This document shows positions 7,622 to 46,309 of a stretch of 64,000 bases of DNA, in pieces. The notes under the pieces were generated by a model that was not told the DNA's origin, did not search any database, and saw only the letters and a list, made by a program, of their open reading frames with translations. Positions within the stretch are counted from its first letter, which is position 1. Each line of letters starts with the position of its first letter. Location: positions 7,659-71,658 of the forward strand of contig JAZURX010000068.1 of the NCBI GenBank assembly GCA_045606385.1, in the 5' to 3' direction. Origin of the DNA: Bacteroidales bacterium. GTDB taxonomy: Bacteria > Bacteroidota > Bacteroidia > Bacteroidales > UBA11471. Position numbers and translations under genes: made by a program.

Positions 7622-8377
7622 ATGGAAAAAACCATTAATATAACGCTGAAAATATGGCGTCAAAGAGGCCCCAAAGAAAAAGGTGCCTTCAAAGAGTATG
7701 CACTTAATGGCATCTCTACCGACAGCTCGTTCCTTGAAATGCTCGACATTCTTAACGAACAGCTCATTAATAAAGGCGAAGAGCCTGTAGTATTCGACCA
7801 CGATTGTCGCGAAGGCATTTGCGGCATGTGCTCACTCTACATCAACGGACACCCCCACGGACCCGATGAAGATGTTACAACTTGCCAATTGCACATGCGT
7901 AAATTCAACGATGGCGATGTAATCACTATCGAACCGTGGCGCTCAGCCGGATTCCCCGTAATCCGCGACTTAATGGTAGACCGTGGTGCTTTCGATAAAA
8001 TCATACAAGCCGGTGGCTACGTATCGGTAAATACCGGCGGTGTGCCCGATGCCAATGCTATACCTATTCCCAAAGCCGATGCCGATGAAGCTATGGACTC
8101 GGCAAGCTGTATAGGTTGTGGAGCCTGCGTTGCCGCTTGCAAAAACGGCTCGGCCATGCTTTTCGTTTCGGCTAAAGTAAGCCAACTCGCTCTTCTCCCA
8201 CAAGGTCGCGTTGAAGCCGCTGCTCGTGCCAAAGCTATGTTGGCCAAAATGGATGAACTCGGATTTGGTAACTGCACCAATACCGGCGCTTGCGAAGCCG
8301 AGTGTCCCAAAAGCGTATCGATATCGAACATAGCACGTCTCAATCGCGAGTTTATCAAAGCCAAACTCAAAGACTAA
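7622..8377 (+). CDS. frdB: Succinate dehydrogenase/fumarate reductase iron-sulfur subunit
   Basis: Cysteine clusters [20 protein letters not shown] and [12 protein letters not shown] correspond to 2Fe-2S, 4Fe-4S and 3Fe-4S centres. Confidence 0.95.
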
Positions 8378-8398: not shown

Positions 8399-8439
8399 GA
8401 CAAGAGCGGGAGGCCGTATAAAGACCTCCCGCTCTTGTC
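8399..8439 (+). terminator. Rho-independent-type terminator after frdB
   Basis: Perfect 15-bp GC-rich stem gacaagagcgggagg / cctcccgctcttgtc with an 11-nt loop. Confidence 0.8.
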
Positions 8440-8583
8440 TTCAATAGAAATTCATCGTCGTATTACGCGCTCAATTATAAATAATTCTGGCTACAAATAC
8501 AAAGAAATCACACGTCTTCAACGAACAATCACACAACACCTTGTTTTCGCAGAATAGTCGAAACAAACATTAGCAAAATGCTT

Positions 8584-8672
8584 TATAGTTGAGCAAAACC
8601 CGTATATACTACATTCGCTGTGATAAATATTGGAGCAAGTTCCATATTTCTCGCTCGTTTATTGTATATTTG
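8584..8672 (+). repeat. Intergenic repeat, copy A (about 85-bp unit with 13-mer ATTTCTCGCTCGT and terminal TAtaTTTG box)
   Basis: The exact 13-mer is at 8646-8658 and TATATTTG at 8665-8672. The copy aligns block by block with those at 45323-45414 and 21546-21647 (minus). A degenerate extra core cgcgctcaattataa lies near 8474-8500. Confidence 0.75.
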
Positions 8673-8756
8673 TAACTTGAATTGGTATATACTTCCGATA
8701 CCGACAAAGGCAAGACAGTTACACCAAAGCAAGATAACCCAACGTAGAAAACAATC

Positions 8757-10394
8757 ATGCAACCCACAAATTTCTCCCTCATAGCCAAAACTTTTCAAGG
8801 ACTCGAAGAGGTCTTGGCTAACGAAATCTCCACACTCGGTGGTGAAAATATAGAAATAGGCAAACGAATGGTTTCATTTACAGGCGATAAAGAATTGTTG
8901 TATAAAGTCAATCTTCATTGTCGTACAGCGCTACGTATACTCAAACCCATACATACATTTACAGCCATCGATACCGACGATTTATACGACGAGATAAAAG
9001 CCTTTGAATGGGATCAATACCTCACACCCGATATGACATTTACCATTGACCCAGTTGTATATTCTGACGAATTCAAACACTCAAAATTTGTAACATATCG
9101 GGCCAAAGATGCCATCGCCGACTATTTCCGCGAAAAATATGACAAACGCCCCTCTGTACGATTATCAGGAGCCGACATATTCATAAATCTGCATATCAAT
9201 GGCACAACATGCACCTTGTCACTCGATAGCTCAGGAGAGTCACTCCATAAACGGGGTTACCGCGTAGCACAGACAGAGGCTCCCCTCAATGAGGTTCTTG
9301 CAGCAGGCTTACTCCTACTCGCAGGCTGGGATGGGACAAAAGATCTTTATGATCCCATGTGTGGCTCGGGAACGCTACTCATTGAAGCAGCCCTCATAGC
9401 CACAGGAACACCTGCCGGTATATACCGCACGGATTTTGCATTCAAACATTGGAACGACTACGACGAAGAGCTATTCGAGACCTTATACAACGACGAGAGC
9501 TACGAACGTCCCTTCTATCACAAAATACATGGTAGCGACATATCACCACGCGCCATAGAAATTGCTACCGAGAACATTAAGAACGCAGGCATGAGCCGCT
9601 ACATTGATATTGCAGTAAAACCTATACAACAGTACACCGAAGGAGAAATCCCGACAGGAGGGCTGCTTGTAACCAATCCTCCATACGGAGAACGCATCAC
9701 AAGCGACGACCTTATGGGGCTATACGAAATGATTGGTAAACAATTGAAATTTGTATTCAAAGGTTTTGATGCTTGGGTCATCAGCTATCGCAACGAATGT
9801 TTCGACCACATAGGACTGAAATCAGCTGCTCGTATAGCCATGATGAACGGCTCTCTCAACTGTGAATATCGCAAATATGAAATATTCGACGGAAAATACA
9901 GCGACTTCAAGCGTGATACAGGAGGTTTCAAGCGTGAAGAGAAAACCGAAAAAACCTCTTTCAAACGCAAAGACTTAGGTGAAACCGCTCGTAAAAATCA
10001 GGGCGAAAGAAAAGCCTTTGATGGTCGTAAATCACACGAAGAAAGAGAGACTCGTGGTAATCACAACCTAAGCCAACGTCAAAATAGAAAAGAGAATGAC
10101 AGAGATACATTCAGTCGCAACGGTATATCATCGAGAACAACAAATTTTCGTGATAAAGAAAGAGAGCGCAAAACATCTAAAGAGGAAATCATTGCCAATA
10201 ATCAACAATTTACGGCCGCATACGACCTCGACGACGAAATAAAGCTCTCGCGCTATCGTCGTTTCAGGCTGCATGGCGATGAAGCCGTAAAAACCTATGT
10301 CAAAGGTCGCCAGCCCTCTATCGGCACAGAGAAAAAGGCGAAAGACAAAAAATCAAAAACGACATCACCTCGCAACAAAAGAGCCAAAAAATAA
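8757..10394 (+). CDS. THUMP domain-containing class I SAM-dependent RNA methyltransferase with long basic C-terminal tail
   Basis: THUMP-like N-terminal region, SAM-binding DPMCGSGT and catalytic NPPYGERI. The last roughly 165 aa are a K/R/E-rich low-complexity tail. Confidence 0.85.
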   Translation: MQPTNFSLIAKTFQGLEEVLANEISTLGGENIEIGKRMVSFTGDKELLYKVNLHCRTALRILKPIHTFTAIDTDDLYDEIKAFEWDQYLTPDMTFTIDPVVYSDEFKHSKFVTYRAKDAIADYFREKYDKRPSVRLSGADIFINLHINGTTCTLSLDSSGESLHKRGYRVAQTEAPLNEVLAAGLLLLAGWDGTKDLYDPMCGSGTLLIEAALIATGTPAGIYRTDFAFKHWNDYDEELFETLYNDESYERPFYHKIHGSDISPRAIEIATENIKNAGMSRYIDIAVKPIQQYTEGEIPTGGLLVTNPPYGERITSDDLMGLYEMIGKQLKFVFKGFDAWVISYRNECFDHIGLKSAARIAMMNGSLNCEYRKYEIFDGKYSDFKRDTGGFKREEKTEKTSFKRKDLGETARKNQGERKAFDGRKSHEERETRGNHNLSQRQNRKENDRDTFSRNGISSRTTNFRDKERERKTSKEEIIANNQQFTAAYDLDDEIKLSRYRRFRLHGDEAVKTYVKGRQPSIGTEKKAKDKKSKTTSPRNKRAKK

Positions 10395-15303: not shown

Positions 15304-15457
15304 TCTCTACAAAATAATACAGAAAGTATTACATACCCAAAATACGTCTCCAAACCGCTAAAACGGTGCATATTCATATAAACCCGTCTACTACCATTCT
15401 CACAAATACATTACTGCACGACAAAATCGAAGTCGTACAAAAACAAAATACGATGTA

Positions 15458-15493
15458 CAAGCAACTTAATCTTTCTCCGCGCTCGCAATAATT
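15458..15493 (+). repeat. Intergenic repeat, degenerate copy E
   Basis: caagcaacttaatctttctccgcgctcgcaataatt aligns with caagcaggcttgacatttctcgctcgtttattatt of copy B. There is no -7 box and no downstream gene (convergent intergenic region). Confidence 0.5.
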
Positions 15494-15619
15494 AGGCAAA
15501 CATACGCAACTTACAATGATAAATACAAACATTACAAAAAACTATATCGGAGAACCATACCCTGTGGTTTGCATGAAAGATATACCGTAAAACATATATA
15601 AACAAAGAGTATTTTTTAT

Positions 15620-20879: not shown

Positions 20880-21500
20880 CTACAACTCTCCGTTGCCACT
20901 ATTTTTATCATAGCCCTTTACATTGATATAAAACATGGCGCGTGCCGTATACCAATATGGCATTATCCACAATAACGGAATAAAGAGCAATATTACCGAA
21001 AACAAAGAAATTATAACAAACCAAAGATCCATCAAAAAAAGTCTCATTTTATGTCCACTCATCATGATACGACTTTCATGTATTGCCTCTACATTGCTCG
21101 CTCCGGTATCGGCCAATATATATGGAACCATTGCATACGAGTAACTTTTAACTATACCCGGTACAATAAGTAACAATGTCCACAAAAAAAGTTGAAGATT
21201 TGTAAGGAACATCGTACAGAATACTCGCGTGAAGTCCTTAAATCCGTCGAATATATTTTTTATATCAAGCACATCACCCCGGCTCAGCCGCAAATACATC
21301 ACGACAATACCCCATGTTATGGGTATCATTATAAGGATTGTGGCAACATTTCCTACATAATGCATACTCCCAAATACAAGCCCTATAACACCCACCAATA
21401 CCGAATATACTACGTAAAAGAGTATTGCCATACCCCATTTTCCCGATAAAACGTCACGAGACTTCTGTCTCAATTCACTGTTTTTGCTAATCTCTTCCAT
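20880..21500 (-). CDS. DUF975 family integral membrane protein
   Basis: 206 aa. N-terminal ...SRDVLSGKWGMAILFYVVY... and 5-6 TM helices resemble DUF975 proteins. Confidence 0.7.
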   Translation of the reverse strand: MEEISKNSELRQKSRDVLSGKWGMAILFYVVYSVLVGVIGLVFGSMHYVGNVATILIMIPITWGIVVMYLRLSRGDVLDIKNIFDGFKDFTRVFCTMFLTNLQLFLWTLLLIVPGIVKSYSYAMVPYILADTGASNVEAIHESRIMMSGHKMRLFLMDLWFVIISLFSVILLFIPLLWIMPYWYTARAMFYINVKGYDKNSGNGEL

Positions 21501-21545: not shown

Positions 21546-21647
21546 CAAATATCATGGCACACGAGCGAGAAATAGGAAACTTTTTCAATATTCTTCACTT
21601 TAAATGCAGTATATATTCGATTTCTACCTCAAAAATACGAAAAAAAA
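21546..21647 (-). repeat. Intergenic repeat, copy C (minus orientation, upstream of the DUF975 gene)
   Basis: Reverse complement of the 13-mer at 21561-21573. GATATTTG box at 21546-21553 and TATTTTTG box at 21640-21647. A further degenerate unit lies upstream at roughly 21670-21760. Confidence 0.75.
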
Positions 21648-23664: not shown

Positions 23665-23865
23665 AAAATAAATTAAAATATTGCACACCTCGCAAAAATA
23701 GTGTTACTTTGCACTCGACAATTTGTGGATGGATTTGGCTGCTTGCAACCACACTAAAAAACTGCTAAAACGGTATCTTTCCATGTGGCTCTTTGCCATA
23801 AAACCGCACGCATTTGAAGTTTTTACTCCATCTCTTGTCGTAGTATAACCAATAAAAACGATAAG

Positions 23866-25155
23866 ATGAATTACCTTTTTACCTCTGAATCGGTATCGGA
23901 AGGACACCCCGACAAAGTTGCCGATCAAATTTCAGACGCACTACTCGATGAGTTTCTCGCCTACGACCCGCAATCGAAAGTCGCATGTGAAACTCTTGTT
24001 ACCACCGGTCAAGTAGTTCTTGCCGGTGAGGTAAAGTCGAACGCATATATCGACCTGCATGAAGTTGCTCGTCGTGTAATAAATCGCATAGGCTACACTC
24101 GTAGCGAATACAAATTCGACGGCGATTCCTGCGGTGTTTTCTCGGCTATTCATGAGCAATCGGCCGATATAAATCGCGGTGTAGAAAGAACAGTATCTAT
24201 GGATCAAGGAGCCGGCGACCAAGGCATGATGTTCGGCTACGCATGCAACGAGACCGACAACTACATGCCTCTTTCTCTCGAACTCTCACACTTGATACTC
24301 ACCACTCTTGCCGATATACGTCGCGAGAACGATACTATTACTTACTTGCGCCCCGATGCCAAGTCGCAAGTGACCATCGAATACGATGAGAATAACCGTC
24401 CGGTACGTATACACACCATCGTGCTTTCGACGCAGCACGACGAGTTTGTATATCCGACCAACGAAACACCCGAGGCTCAAGATATAGCCGACCGTGCGAT
24501 GCTCGACAAAATATCAGACGACGTACGCAATATCGTACTACCTCGTGTCATTGCATCGCTCCCCAAACGCGTACAAGCACTTTTCGACAAGAATCTCATT
24601 TTGCACGTAAACCCTACCGGCAAATTTGTTATCGGAGGTCCACACGGTGACACAGGACTTACCGGTCGTAAAATCATCGTAGACACATACGGAGGAAAGG
24701 GAGCCCATGGTGGTGGTGCATTCTCGGGTAAAGATCCCTCGAAAGTCGACCGTTCGGCAGCGTACGCCGCACGACACATTGCCAAAAACATGGTGGCCGC
24801 CGGTATTGCCGACGAAATGTTGGTACAAGTTTCATACGCCATCGGTGTGGCTCACCCTGTAAGTATCTTTGTCAATACCTATAATACCTCACACGTAGAT
24901 AAAAGCGACGCCGAAATAGCCGCTATAGTAGGCGAAATATTCGATATGCGACCCAAAGCCATAGAGGAACGATTGAAACTACGCAATCCTATATACGAAG
25001 AAACAGCCGCATACGGACACATGGGACGTACTCCCCGTACCGTACACAAAGTATTTTCTTCGCGCTACGAAAAACCGGTATCTATAGATGTAGAATTATT
25101 TACTTGGGAAAAACTCGACTATGTCGACACAATAAAAAAAATATTCAATTTATAG
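23866..25155 (+). CDS. metK: Methionine adenosyltransferase
   Basis: GHPDKVADQISD, GAGDQGMMFGYA and GGGAFSGKDPSKVDRS motifs. Confidence 0.97.
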   Translation: MNYLFTSESVSEGHPDKVADQISDALLDEFLAYDPQSKVACETLVTTGQVVLAGEVKSNAYIDLHEVARRVINRIGYTRSEYKFDGDSCGVFSAIHEQSADINRGVERTVSMDQGAGDQGMMFGYACNETDNYMPLSLELSHLILTTLADIRRENDTITYLRPDAKSQVTIEYDENNRPVRIHTIVLSTQHDEFVYPTNETPEAQDIADRAMLDKISDDVRNIVLPRVIASLPKRVQALFDKNLILHVNPTGKFVIGGPHGDTGLTGRKIIVDTYGGKGAHGGGAFSGKDPSKVDRSAAYAARHIAKNMVAAGIADEMLVQVSYAIGVAHPVSIFVNTYNTSHVDKSDAEIAAIVGEIFDMRPKAIEERLKLRNPIYEETAAYGHMGRTPRTVHKVFSSRYEKPVSIDVELFTWEKLDYVDTIKKIFNL

Positions 25156-25265: not shown

Positions 25266-26549
25266 ATGAACAACAATAAACCATTCAGTCCCGAAACTCT
25301 CTGCGTACAAGGAGGGTGGCAACCCAAAAAAGGCGAACCGCGCGTATTACCAATATACCAAAGTACAACTTTCCGTTACGAAACCAGCGAACAAATGGCT
25401 CGTCTCTTCGATCTCGAAGATAACGGATATTTCTATACTCGATTGCAAAATCCCACCAACGATGCTGTAGCGTCTAAAATAGCAGCCCTCGAAGGTGGTG
25501 TGGGAGCCATGCTTACCTCATCGGGGCAAGCTGCCAACTTCTACGCCATATTCAACATCTGCTCGGCAGGAGACCATTTCGTATGCTCCTCTACTATTTA
25601 TGGTGGCACATTCAACCTCTTCGGTGTAACATTGAAAAAATTAGGTATTGACGTAACTTTTATCGACCCCGACAGCGATGAAACGACTATCGAGGCAGCC
25701 TTCCGCCCCAACACCAAGGCTCTTTTTGGCGAGACACTCTCCAATCCAGGCATGCAGGTACTCGACATCGAGAAATTTGCCCGCGTGGCACATCGCAACG
25801 GAGTACCCCTCATCATAGACAATACATTTGCAACCCCTATCAATTGTCGCCCTTTCGAGTGGGGTGCCGACATAGTGACACACTCTACCACTAAGTATAT
25901 GGATGGTCATGCCACGTGTGTAGGAGGAGTAATTGTCGATAGCGGTAATTTCGATTGGGAGACGCATGCCGACAAGTTCCCCGGACTTACAACCCCCGAC
26001 GAATCGTACCACGGACTTACCTATACCAAGGCATTCGGTAAAATGGCCTACATGACCAAAGCCACTGCACAACTTATGCGCGACCTCGGATCCATACAGT
26101 CGCCACAAAACGCATTCCTGCTCAATCTTGGTCTTGAGACACTGCACCTGCGTATGCCACGACACTGCGAAAATGCTCAGAAGGTAGCCGAATACCTCGA
26201 AAGTTGTCCGCAAGTGGCTTGGGTAAATTATCCGGGGCTGAAAAACAACAAATACTATGAGTTGGCTCAAAAATATATGCCAAACGGCACATGCGGTGTT
26301 ATCGCTTTCGGTCTGAAAGGCACACGAGAAGATGCCATCAAATTTATGGATAATCTGAAACTTGCCGCCATCGTCACCCACGTAGCCGATGCTCGCACTT
26401 GCGTGCTACACCCTGCAAGCCACACACACCGACAACTGAGCGATGAGCAACTCATTGCTGCCGGTGTAGCTCCCGACCTTATACGCCTGTCGGTAGGTAT
26501 CGAAGAGGTAAACGATATCATTGCCGACCTGCAACAGGCCATGAATTGA
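25266..26549 (+). CDS. metY: O-acetylhomoserine aminocarboxypropyltransferase / sulfhydrylase
   Basis: Cys/Met-metabolism PLP enzyme with the STTKYMDGH PLP-lysine motif; length 427 aa. Confidence 0.93.
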   Translation: MNNNKPFSPETLCVQGGWQPKKGEPRVLPIYQSTTFRYETSEQMARLFDLEDNGYFYTRLQNPTNDAVASKIAALEGGVGAMLTSSGQAANFYAIFNICSAGDHFVCSSTIYGGTFNLFGVTLKKLGIDVTFIDPDSDETTIEAAFRPNTKALFGETLSNPGMQVLDIEKFARVAHRNGVPLIIDNTFATPINCRPFEWGADIVTHSTTKYMDGHATCVGGVIVDSGNFDWETHADKFPGLTTPDESYHGLTYTKAFGKMAYMTKATAQLMRDLGSIQSPQNAFLLNLGLETLHLRMPRHCENAQKVAEYLESCPQVAWVNYPGLKNNKYYELAQKYMPNGTCGVIAFGLKGTREDAIKFMDNLKLAAIVTHVADARTCVLHPASHTHRQLSDEQLIAAGVAPDLIRLSVGIEEVNDIIADLQQAMN

Positions 26550-26615: not shown

Positions 26616-26874
26616 TCACCGGCATTACAACCAACTTTCACACCCTTTATCATTGATAAACAACTTTTGTAAGCAAGATTACTCTCAATCAAATTTTTTT
26701 ATGTATGTTTGTATGATTACATTTCATTGTTGAACAATACCGATTTGCAATTACGTATACAAAGCAGGACAAACAGATGAGCTACGACTATCTTTCCGGA
26801 AACGCCAAATGTACGCCTCTGCAATGAAATAAAAAACGAAATTTTTCGAGTAGAAGCATGTAATACACACGCTA

Positions 26875-44301: not shown

Positions 44302-45213
44302 TTACTGCAAACGCAACTCCATACCTGCAACAGGCACATTCTCCTCGGAGATATTGTTTCGTTTTATCAATTTTTTCAATTTTACGCCATATTTCTGCGA
44401 AACATCGTGTAGAGACTCTCCTGCCGATAATACATGTATAGTATTCGGCTTTTGAGCCTTACGGCGTTTGGCTTTCACATATATAATATCGCCCGGTTGC
44501 AATACATAGCCCCGAGGAAAATCATTGAATCGACGCACCTGATAACGATATAATTCAAACTCGCGAGCTATATATTTAATTTTATCGCCTTCACGTGCCA
44601 CAATGTAAGGTAACCCCCATTGTGAAAGAAGATCATGATACTCATATTCTTTGGGCAATCGAGGCATGCTTTTGCCATCATATCGATGCAGTCCATAGAG
44701 TTCAATTGTCTGTATCAACTTACTTGCATATGCTTTATCAGTCGCATACCCACAACGCTTGAGCCCATGAGCCCACCCTTTATAATCGGTCACATCGAGT
44801 TTGAAAAGCACATCGTACCGCGAACTCTTGGTAAGAAACAACGCATGGTCTTCATATGAATATTTTGGATTTTTATATTTTCGAAAACATTCCCCCTTCT
44901 CATCATCGTCATGATATACTTTATCGCCTTCCCACGAATTATGACATTTTATCCCGAAATGATTGTTCGATTTTTTTGCCAATTCACTTGTCCCCGCTGC
45001 CGACTCGATAAGCCCCTGTGCCAGAGTGATACTTGCCGGTATTTTATACTTTCGCTGATGCTCCATGGCAATATCTTTATACTTACGTATATAATCGAGA
45101 TATATAGGATTTTTGTTTTGTCCCAACATTATTGCCGATGACAACAATAGAATACAAACGATACTGTTTTTGAATGTGCACATAAATAGACTTTTTATAG
45201 ATAAAAGATTCAT
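44302..45213 (-). CDS. Peptidoglycan hydrolase: GH73 N-acetylglucosaminidase domain plus two LysM repeats
   Basis: LAQGLIESAAGTSELAKKSNNHFGIK is the GH73 catalytic region. The C-terminus carries LysM-like repeats (YIAREGDKIKYIAREF..., HVLSAGESLHDVSQKYGV...). Confidence 0.85.
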   Translation of the reverse strand: MNLLSIKSLFMCTFKNSIVCILLLSSAIMLGQNKNPIYLDYIRKYKDIAMEHQRKYKIPASITLAQGLIESAAGTSELAKKSNNHFGIKCHNSWEGDKVYHDDDEKGECFRKYKNPKYSYEDHALFLTKSSRYDVLFKLDVTDYKGWAHGLKRCGYATDKAYASKLIQTIELYGLHRYDGKSMPRLPKEYEYHDLLSQWGLPYIVAREGDKIKYIAREFELYRYQVRRFNDFPRGYVLQPGDIIYVKAKRRKAQKPNTIHVLSAGESLHDVSQKYGVKLKKLIKRNNISEENVPVAGMELRLQ

Positions 45214-45233: not shown

Positions 45234-45414
45234 AATTTCTCGTTTTCTACAATAACCGACGAATATAGTACACGGCTCGAATAAAAATCAAATGAAATTG
45301 TTTTTCTTCTCTCGTCATTCGCTATATTTGAGGTAAACCTCGAATATAGTTGCTCTCGCAGTGAAAAATATCCAAGCAGGCTTGACATTTCTCGCTCGTT
45401 TATTATTATATTTG
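45234..45414 (+). repeat. Intergenic repeat, locus B: about 2.3 tandem units ending in the cdd promoter
   Basis: Best unit at 45323-45414, with the exact 13-mer at 45387-45399 and TATATTTG at both 45323-45330 and 45407-45414. A degenerate unit precedes it at 45248-45322 (cgaatatag, aatgaaatt, ttctctcgtcattcgc), along with a partial core aatttctcgtttt at 45234-45246. Confidence 0.75.
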
Positions 45415-45440
45415 CAGTTACTGCAAATATACAATTTGGA

Positions 45441-45908
45441 ATGAAACAAATAGATATATCGACAAAGATAATTGTTTGCCATTACAATGAGTTGTCTGAG
45501 GAAGAAAAAAATTTGGTAAACATTGCCCGTTCCATGCCGGCAAAATCATATGCGCCCTATTCGCGTTTCCGCGTCGGAGCGGCAGTATTACTTGCCGATG
45601 GTCGCATAATTACAGGCAGTAATCAAGAAAACGCCTCCTATCCCAACGGATTGTGTGCCGAGCGTGTAGCACTATTTTCGGCCGGAGCAACCGCACCCGA
45701 CATACCGGCTGTCGCCATAGCTCTTGCCGCCGAAAATGATAAAGGCATACCTATCGAGCCTATCACTCCATGCGGAGCCTGTCGCCAAGTGATGCACGAA
45801 ACAGAAATGCGATACGACACACCTTTGCGTGTGCTTATGTGTGGCTGTGATAAGATATATATTTCCGAGTCCGCAAAAGTATTATTGCCATTGTCATTTG
45901 CGCTATAA
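45441..45908 (+). CDS. cdd: Cytidine deaminase
   Basis: Zinc-binding CAERVALF and PCGACRQ motifs; 155 aa. Confidence 0.93.
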   Translation: MKQIDISTKIIVCHYNELSEEEKNLVNIARSMPAKSYAPYSRFRVGAAVLLADGRIITGSNQENASYPNGLCAERVALFSAGATAPDIPAVAIALAAENDKGIPIEPITPCGACRQVMHETEMRYDTPLRVLMCGCDKIYISESAKVLLPLSFAL

Positions 45909-46052
45909 TCATCCCTTCAACGTTGTCGATATTCCGATGGTGACATTCTTGTACCTACGGAAATAGGTACCGATAACTCAAGATTATAATGAGTAGATAT
46001 GGCACAGCCCTCATAGAAAAAAAATTATCGGCATTGATTCTTTTCTGCACTT

Positions 46053-46114
46053 CACTCAATGAAATATTCGTAATAATATTCTCGCTCATGACTCTTATTT
46101 TGAGACGAATATAA
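46053..46114 (+). repeat. Intergenic repeat, copy D (partial, spans a unit junction)
   Basis: cactcaatgaaatattcg ... tattctcgctcat (46077-46089) ... ttattttgagacgaatataag aligns with the agtgaaaaatat, atttctcgctcgt and tatatttgagg..cgaatatag blocks of copy B. Confidence 0.6.
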
Positions 46115-46309
46115 GTCATTTCAAAATCATTACGGCAGAGGCTACACTGTTTTCCGACTTATAAAACAAAGAAACAGATATTAAAAACGCAAAAAGCCCT
46201 GTTAAATAAATTTTTATAAACTTGCGTACAAGACAAAACAAACAACATATATACCATAAAGATTATTAATGAATGAAAGAATACATCTCCCCATAAATTA
46301 ATTTATCAT

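Follow-up and report, generated by a model that had tools for sequence, protein, structure and literature searches.

An apparently undescribed 84-bp repeat unit with a putative promoter box upstream of unrelated genes in Bacteroidales

The window analysed here, a stretch of 64,000 nt from a Bacteroidales bacterium, carries three copies of a repeat unit of about 84 bp (copies A, B, and C), each placed 5′ of a different gene. All coordinates are window positions unless a locus is named. The copies share the 13-mer ATTTCTCGCTCGT, which an exact search located at 8646–8658 on the plus strand (A), at 45387–45399 on the plus strand (B), and at 21561–21573 on the minus strand (C); the chance expectation is 0.01, and none of 100 dinucleotide-preserving shuffles of the window reached three matches. 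Around each 13-mer, about 90 nt can be aligned with the blocks in one order, and each copy is oriented towards the adjacent gene. The 13-mer is followed, after 6 nt in copy A and 7 nt in copies B and C, by a box that reads TATATTTG in A (8665–8672) and B (45407–45414) and GATATTTG in C (21546–21553); from the first box to the 13-mer, the spacing is 62 nt in A and 64 nt in both B and C. According to Pfam, the genes 3′ of copies A, B, and C encode an RlmL/THUMP methyltransferase, a cytidine deaminase (cdd), and a DUF975 protein, whose ATG codons lie 84, 26, and 45 nt from the box, respectively. An earlier reading of the same DNA (hereafter the original prediction) had given the same 13-mer positions, gaps of 6–7 nt with the 13-mer pointing to the adjacent gene, conserved blocks over some 90–100 bp, the 64/64/62-nt spacing, and the same three genes, and these points were borne out. 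Profile hidden Markov models (HMMs), built either from the three copies or from 84 units of the family described below, recovered A, B, and C as the sole sites in the window (E = 4e-18 to 4e-25), with nothing else below E = 0.08. The three copies are 72–74% identical to one another and up to 90% identical to copies from foreign metagenome-assembled genomes (MAGs).

Copy A consists of one type I unit on the plus strand (8584–8672; nhmmer with the 84-unit HMM, E = 4e-18, model positions 4–96). The unit starts with a degenerate upstream box, TATAGTTG (8584–8591), and continues with a CTCGCT-type box, CATTCGCTGTGA (8612–8623), situated 5′ of a dyad termed H2 (AAATATT-GGAG-CAAG-TTCC-ATATTT, 8625–8649), the pairing of which is backed by covariation in an alignment of family units (A2). 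The 13-mer occupies the site expected for a canonical −33 element, and the gene-proximal −7 box, TATATTTGT (8665–8673), fits the consensus TANNTTTGY. The methyltransferase gene extends from 8757 to 10394 on the plus strand, its distance being counted from the box end at 8672. A strong GC-rich hairpin at 8400–8440 (plus strand; ACAAGAGCGGGAGG...CCTCCCGCTCTTGT) lies directly 3′ of an Fe-S subunit gene (7622–8377) and is likely a terminator that would insulate copy A from the upstream operon.

Site B is a two-unit array, in which a type II unit is followed by a type I unit. The upstream unit, a type II variant on the plus strand (45236–45332; ...GGCTCGAATAAAAATCAAATGAAATTGTTTTTCTTCTCTCGTCATTCGC TATATTTG), was identified by alignment with type II units of a Coprobacter MAG (loci L008, L023, and L044), the mean column identity of the five-sequence alignment (A4) being 75%. 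The segment 45262–45431 is 80% identical to L008 by blastn, and the unit HMM gives 45236–45332 an E-value of 0.08. The original inventory of copies was thus right about the three sites but missed this second unit. The internal −7-like box of the array (45323–45330, plus strand) is also the 5′ arm of a second dyad, H1 (TATATTTGAGG-TAAA-CCTCGAATATA, 45323–45348), whose central stem covaries in A2, as does H2 (AAATATC-CAAG-CAGG-CTTG-ACATTT, 45366–45390). The gene-proximal −7 box, TATATTTGC (45407–45415), lies within a perfect 12-1-12 palindrome, TATATTTGCAGT-T-ACTGCAAATATA (45407–45431), 3′ of which cdd begins on the plus strand at 45441. The palindrome presents perfect TATATTTGC boxes on both strands, with predicted start sites a few nucleotides apart, and its minus-strand box (45431–45423) could drive antisense transcription through the array to a divergent glucosaminidase/LysM gene (44302–45213).

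Copy C is a single type I unit on the minus strand (21546–21638; nhmmer, E = 2.6e-16), with H1 and the upstream box at 21612–21637, H2 at 21570–21593, and the DUF975 gene starting at 21500. Its gene-proximal box is imperfect: with the next base it reads GATATTTGT, one mismatch to TANNTTTGY, whereas the boxes of A and B fit.

Three degenerate copies had also been proposed, and these fared differently when gapped alignments to a two-unit consensus were ranked against 3161 background windows. The segment 46040–46120, which contains the proposed copy at 46053–46114, gave the top score and is probably a decayed unit-junction relic (TTCTGCAC..CACTCAATGAAATATT..TTCTCGCTC..TATTTTGAG..CGAATATA, plus strand) between the convergent genes cdd and dnaX. 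The segment 15440–15510 (proposed copy at 15458–15493) ranked in the top five and is borderline, whereas 26660–26730 (proposed copy at 26671–26711) is at background level, since 508 of the 3161 windows score as high. Neither the unit HMM nor a junction HMM picked up any of the three segments. Both 46040–46120 and 15440–15510 are flanked by convergent genes, a setting in which a promoter would have no use; this would fit a decay of copies once they have ceased to face a gene.

Genomes were scanned, one per species, with the pattern ATTTCTCGCTCGT-N6-10-ATTTG, which demands an exact 13-mer, and at least 118 loci matched. About 95 of the loci listed are true family members, derived from at least 60 MAGs, and the rest are chance matches in unrelated phyla; the possibility, raised with the original prediction, that there are no further copies and no conservation in relatives can thus be dismissed. 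Among the matches listed, carriers comprise Barnesiella, Coprobacter, ‘Porphyromonadaceae’, one Muribaculaceae MAG, and many animal-gut bins labelled ‘Bacteroidaceae bacterium’; the units form head-to-tail arrays with a period of 81–87 nt, most often 84–85 nt, and the 109 arrays include 66 single, 33 double, 7 triple, 2 quadruple, and 1 quintuple arrays. In the window and these loci together, there are 166 HMM hits spanning 61 genomes. The consensus unit is TATATTTG-AGGTAAACCT-CGAATATA-nn-CTGCACTCGCTGTG-AAAAATATT-SAAGC-AA-GCTTS-ATATTT-CTCGCTCGTTTGTT-nn, followed by the next TATATTTG, and includes two CTCGCT boxes. Units of types II and III and a ‘leader’ variant follow the same plan as type I, and different types can share an array in either order, type II preceding type I in the window and following it in the Coprobacter MAG. 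The leader variant opens some arrays (L001, L020, L028, L050, and L098; e.g. L028 4254–4351, minus strand), and in it H1 and its flanks are replaced by a short hairpin, GGAGCTAAAGCTCC, and a second hairpin, CAACGC-TnnTTC-GCGTTG, with compensatory changes of its own. The 5′ boundary of the arrays is ragged, as they start at H1, at H2, or at the 13-mer, and about one-third lack the first box or H1 at the upstream end yet keep H2 and the 13-mer.

The arrays are mostly, though not always, intergenic and directed at a gene: 104 of 109 are intergenic, and a same-strand open reading frame (ORF) of at least 60 aa begins within 350 nt downstream of 82 of 98. On the upstream side, the neighbouring gene runs in the same direction in 40 cases and diverges in 47. 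About 66 distinct proteins are encoded downstream, with no common family; they represent heterogeneous housekeeping genes, e.g. those for gyrase/topoisomerase IV subunit A, AspRS, EttA, EF-P, SSB, RecF, SbcD, Udk, Cdd, TamL, type IX secretion parts, and NspC. Orthologues of cdd, efp, recF, a POT transporter gene, a TamL-like gene, and a GlcNAc-kinase-like gene carry the unit in several species. Orthologous loci (recF in L020 and L032; efp in L030, L040, and L090) share an identical gene-proximal core and 5′ untranslated region and differ in the number and type of upstream units, which suggests that the distal parts of arrays undergo turnover or gene conversion. In four MAGs, the terminal box is followed by the same non-coding sequence of about 140 nt (GATGTAGTTTGATTAAGATTCTTTGAGTATCAAACC...; L033 4859–5000, L083 7121–7262, L095 2796–2928, and L026 1–126, the last on the minus strand), which is 95–100% identical among them, whereas the upstream units differ. 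This sequence has no Rfam match, and the contigs end 0.13–1.7 kb downstream; it could represent a new conserved RNA, or mark the border of an element that is mobile or present in many copies.

The family is lineage-restricted: only 1 of 80 metagenomic cdd loci, encoding proteins of at most 56% identity to that of the window, carries the unit. In this locus the unit faces a divergent gene and points away from cdd, and a conserved cdd operator was therefore rejected. At this level of identity, no empty site could be aligned among the 80 loci. Searches of IMG/VR viral contigs, GenBank phages, and PLSDB plasmids returned three chance 13-mer matches without family context and nothing else. The Rfam search suggested with the original prediction likewise gave no family at any copy, either at the gathering threshold or at E ≤ 10 (window, sites, and arrays), FopS (RF04319) included; a FopS-family small RNA (78.5 bits) at L023 1318–1386 (plus strand) in the Coprobacter MAG is unrelated to the unit, from which it is about 1 kb distant. 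In the literature, a full-text search with sequence strings gave chance matches in unrelated papers only, and a keyword search gave conceptual analogues with no description of the unit, which is apparently an undescribed repeat family. Inspection of the consensus by eye led us to reject sigma-54, ECF-sigma, and CRP/FNR-type sites, whose signatures (GG/GC, AAC/CGT, and TGTGA-N6-TCACA, respectively) are absent or incomplete, and a small coding ORF, as the unit contains stop codons and varies in length from 81 to 87 nt.

TANNTTTGY is the published −7 promoter consensus of Bacteroides (PMC12632263), and it is enriched about two-fold in the window (54 matches versus 29 expected). The TAnnTTTG-like boxes of the unit are ordinary −7 elements of the Bacteroidota sigma-70 type, the part upstream of them being the unusual feature. 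Perfect TAnnTTTG is found in 93 of 104 terminal (gene-proximal) boxes, 90 of which are exactly TATATTTG, compared with 33 of 44 internal boxes and 52 of 74 upstream-most boxes. Similarly, C or T follows the box in 86 of 100 terminal cases and in only 16 of 43 internal cases, most internal boxes reading TATATTTGA. The better preservation of terminal boxes indicates that the gene-proximal box is the one under selection, and, with a median distance of 38.5 nt to the ATG (interquartile range 26–95), it is very probably the promoter of the gene. The two boxes, which had been treated as equivalent in the original prediction, are therefore to be distinguished: the downstream box looks functional, and it is with the upstream box that the repeat unit begins.

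The family promoters were compared with 94 ordinary TAnnTTTGY promoters from the same loci, which show a −33 signal, TT(G/T)(G/T), ending 19 nt before the box and AA peaks at offsets −28/−27 and −39/−38. TTG occurs at the canonical −33 offset in 3 of 92 family promoters versus 37 of 94 ordinary ones, and the ‘nn’ of the box is TA in 90 of 104 versus 10 of 94. In place of the −33 signal, the 13-mer occupies offsets −20 to −8 from the box, which would correspond to about −32 to −20 from the start site. The family promoters are thus best described as a distinct promoter class. Relative to the canonical sigma-70 (sigma-ABfr) promoter (−33 TTTG/−7 TANNTTTGY), they are alike in the −7 box with its trailing pyrimidine, the short distance to the start codon, and the upstream A-rich phasing seen in ordinary promoters of the same genomes; they differ in having ATTTCTCGCTCGT instead of TTTG at the 19-nt spacing, a fixed TA in the box, a further ~60 bp upstream conserved across genera, and tandem units. 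One explanation would be that the blocks are generic features of all promoters in this organism, as had been allowed earlier, or a chance similarity. The boxes are indeed generic, as the 54 matches in the window show, and AA at the H2 centre (offsets −29/−28) and the A-tract of the H2 5′ arm fall on the A-rich positions of ordinary promoters. However, only three unit sites stand among those 54 boxes, ordinary promoters have neither the 13-mer, the dyads, nor TA at ‘nn’, and neither the low expectation for the 13-mer nor HMM hits over 61 genomes can be reconciled with chance; this explanation is regarded as refuted.

The dyads have a fixed geometry and maintained complementarity. In 73 of 84 units, 28.5 nt separate the centre of H2 from the box, and H1 lies a median of 44 nt, about four helical turns, from H2 and about 72 nt upstream of the box. 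In the 84 units, 90% of the cells of the proposed pairs are complementary, compared with 27–54% when partners are slid by one to three columns, and the covariation score of 0.196 (0.09 in shuffles) was reached by none of 500 shuffles. The centre of H1 occurs in at least 10 self-complementary forms (e.g. GAGG/CCTC, GCGG/CCGC, GTTG/CAAC, and GATG/CATC). In H2, pair 62/73 is G-C in 39 units and C-G in 32, pair 66/69 is C-G in 57 and T-A in 22, and all four combinations are common. Single-sequence folding suggested that H2 might extend into the CTCGCT boxes; this was rejected because the A2 columns, inspected by eye, contain no compensating changes, the 3′ partners being invariant. H1, the 5′ arm of which is the −7 box itself, follows 37 of 38 internal boxes and 23 of 96 terminal boxes, which assigns it to the upstream module rather than to the firing promoter.

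Conserved unpaired segments between covarying stems are a classic signature of structured RNA, and one could suppose that the upstream box fires and yields a small RNA of about 70 nt, or a long 5′ leader, containing H2 and the conserved single-stranded segments CUGCACUCGCUGUG and CUCGCUCGUUUGUU and regulating the downstream gene or acting in trans. In keeping with this, the upstream box is a perfect TAnnTTTG in 70–75% of units, and H1 contains, in 70 of 84 units, a T·G pair that only the plus strand tolerates. The arm of H1 formed by the promoter box would nevertheless lie outside a transcript started there, no conserved promoter is found upstream of H1, internal boxes mostly violate TANNTTTGY, and the one-third of arrays that begin without the first box or H1 still keep H2 and the 13-mer. 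In H2, the innermost pair would leave a loop of just two nucleotides, AA; loops of this size are possible in DNA hairpins, not in RNA. Mismatches of the G·T type are about as frequent as A·C mismatches (21 versus 20 in H1, 13 versus 10 in H2), so that G·U is not favoured. Together, the equal mismatch frequencies, the 2-nt loop, and the position of the H1 arm upstream of the transcript point to a constraint on DNA rather than RNA. The folding energies of the window copies are unexceptional (z = −1.6, −0.6, and +0.1 with DNA parameters), RNAalifold retains only a 4-bp stem, and neither a terminator with a GC-rich stem and U-run nor an Rfam match is present. A transcribed RNA element is accordingly the least supported of the readings offered by the original prediction, and we consider it quite improbable.

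The same DNA-like features would suit a selfish, hairpin-based mobile or duplicating element with an outward promoter, resembling REP/REPIN (repetitive extragenic palindromic) sequences, derivatives of IS200/IS605, or a promoter-bearing miniature element. A transposase or nuclease would then recognise the dyads as hairpins in single-stranded DNA, and the element would come to occupy new sites 5′ of genes, a scheme compatible with a promoter cassette. The compensatory changes in both dyads, the strand-symmetric mismatches, the AA loop of H2, the dispersal 5′ of unrelated genes, the mixing of unit types in either order, the presence at a single one of the 80 cdd loci, and the possible relics at non-promoter sites speak for it. 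Against it stands first the distribution of identity: units at different loci of one MAG are 0.84 identical and units compared between the 61 genomes 0.81, which shows no sign of a recent burst. This near-equality, together with the 72–74% identity among the window copies, argues for many old copies kept at one consensus by selection, as we infer from these comparisons. The unit is 84–90% identical between the window and foreign MAGs, compared with 65–71% for coding DNA (the best nucleotide matches being Bacteroidales MAGs), and orthologous loci retain it across species. By eye, the unit sequences and their alignment show no terminal inverted repeats, the ends being AGGTAAACC... and ...CGTTTGTTnn, and the arrays vary in where they start. 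The units have TATATTTG on either side, as a target-site duplication might leave it, but this 8-mer looks like a component of the repeat (TATATTTG in 90 of 104 family boxes, whereas ‘nn’ is TA in 10 of 94 generic ones). IS200/IS605-derived elements have subterminal hairpins that TnpA recognises as single-stranded DNA, and they insert 3′ of a fixed short target; the two hairpin-capable dyads and the TATATTTG that always precedes a unit might correspond to these. A model in which the element entered an existing −7 box and duplicated 8 bp would have explained the arrays; it is not supported, as the box is family-specific and a canonical −33 precedes the leftmost box in only 1 of 64 cases. In about 900 kb of carrier DNA, a tblastn search found no IS200-type (Y1-transposase-like, TnpA) ORF, although the query sequence was approximate and the test is weak, and the element was not found in the viral, phage, and plasmid collections. 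Such a mobile element is considered possible but unlikely as the main explanation.

Of the readings offered at the outset, a mobile or duplicating promoter cassette is the best supported, on account of the canonical −7 box, the superior preservation of the gene-proximal box, its promoter-like distance from the ATG, and the head-to-tail arrays in other genomes. We favour, with moderate confidence, a promoter cassette whose upstream 75 bp would act as a docking platform for a clade-specific factor and/or RNA polymerase and which would have been amplified by 84-bp tandem duplication; the activator-platform part is held with much less confidence than the assignment of the gene-proximal box. According to this model, each copy would act at the DNA level, with the gene-proximal TATATTTG(C/T) serving as the −7 element of a housekeeping sigma-70-type promoter. 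RNA polymerase would start a few bases past the box, and a short leader would run into the adjacent gene. The upstream ~75 bp would be a fixed module standing in for the −33 TTTG. In the ‘−7’ convention, the start site lies about 11–12 nt after the first T of the box. H2 would then be centred near −41 and H1 near −84 on the same helical face, a geometry like that of class II/III activators. The module may dock a clade-specific DNA-binding factor, the alpha subunits of the polymerase, or both, and selection acting on this contact would hold every copy close to a single consensus. New units would arise by tandem duplication with a period of about 84 bp, or about eight helical turns, so that every added unit would bring in-phase dyads and a weaker internal box (TATATTTGA...), and copies that no longer face a gene would decay. 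A shared operator, another of the earlier suggestions, is compatible with this model and forms part of it, whereas the match of the −7 box to the housekeeping consensus makes an alternative sigma factor unlikely.

Several points weigh against the docking-platform model. About 60 contiguous conserved bases exceed what a typical operator needs, and among the neighbouring genes of the family loci no candidate regulator gene recurs beside the unit. The conservation of the 13-mer partly reflects the way in which the copies were found, an exact match being required, and the gene-proximal box of copy C is imperfect. The chief difficulty is the self-complementarity of the variable dyad centres, which a binding platform does not account for; this complementarity points instead to DNA that forms hairpins or cruciforms, or to quasi-palindromes repaired by template switching. 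It is conceivable, though improbable in our judgement, that the unit is a DNA-structure-dependent promoter module, in which the dyads would extrude as hairpins or cruciforms with 2-nt DNA loops and be read by a clade-specific protein. That protein might be a regulator or an HUH-type enzyme that also copies the unit, which would make the unit a domesticated, self-propagating promoter.

The unit appears to belong to none of the known systems with which it was compared. Putative mobile promoters, or promoter reuse, as described by Nijveen, Matus-Garcia, and van Passel in 2012, are a statistical category rather than a sequence family (PMC3575422). They resemble the present family in that near-identical upstream regions precede non-homologous genes within and between genomes, but here there are a defined 84-bp unit, covarying dyads, head-to-tail arrays, and conservation between genomes as high as within them. 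BrickBuilt of Porphyromonas gingivalis (Klein et al. 2015), a MITE (miniature inverted-repeat transposable element)/minisatellite, is built of 23-nt repeats, has leader and tail subunits and ends in small inverted repeats, and occurs in about 19 copies in one species with bidirectional transcription (PMC4596501). It is likewise a strictly intergenic, tandem, promoter-carrying element of Bacteroidales that influences its neighbours; by its description, it is set apart from the present unit, which is about 84 nt long (81–87), has no terminal inverted repeats, and occurs in at least 60 species. The lack of terminal inverted repeats and the variable 5′ boundary of the arrays distinguish the unit from MITEs in general. 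Pneumococcal BOX elements, with tandem boxB modules, and the Correia elements of Neisseria are small intergenic repeats with stable dyads and variable numbers of tandem modules or outward promoters that change how the adjacent gene is expressed; they have defined ends or inverted repeats and act largely when co-transcribed. They belong to other phyla and have other sequences, whereas the conserved part of the present unit lies 5′ of the predicted start site and is oriented towards the gene. REPs are mostly found at gene 3′ ends, alternate in orientation, and are GC-rich. Like the present family, REPs and the bacterial interspersed mosaic elements (BIMEs) composed of them are short extragenic palindromes kept as hairpins in many copies and composite arrays. 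REP/BIME and REPIN elements are associated with RAYT transposases (PMC2817692, PMC8049555). REPs co-evolve with a species-specific RAYT, and none was seen in the ~900 kb of carrier DNA, a weak test; here, moreover, the units are 5′ of genes, head-to-tail, and AT-armed, with one consensus across genera.

Elsewhere in the window, a SAM-II long-loop riboswitch (23719–23778, plus strand; 68 bits against a gathering score of 44) lies directly 5′ of metK (23866–25155), which is followed by a gene for a Cys/Met pyridoxal phosphate-dependent enzyme (25266–26549).

If the proposed cassette is real, about 1 promoter in 10 in these genomes would be a copy of one 84-bp sequence, a rough extrapolation from three sites among the few dozen candidate promoter boxes of the window, and in at least 60 species this cassette would be bound more tightly to one shared consensus than are the genes served by it. 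This would imply that an abundant, largely uncultured branch of gut Bacteroidales has a trans-acting partner, or a way of recruiting the polymerase, that has gone unrecognised. Arrays of one to five units would constitute a natural experiment on promoter-module copy number and expression, and the unit would provide both a portable promoter part, probably a strong one, with which to engineer bacteria like Barnesiella and Coprobacter, and a clean marker for promoters and operon starts in MAGs of this clade. Should the structure-dependent reading prove true, an 84-bp cassette would install and tune the promoters of housekeeping genes across a family of gut Bacteroidales.

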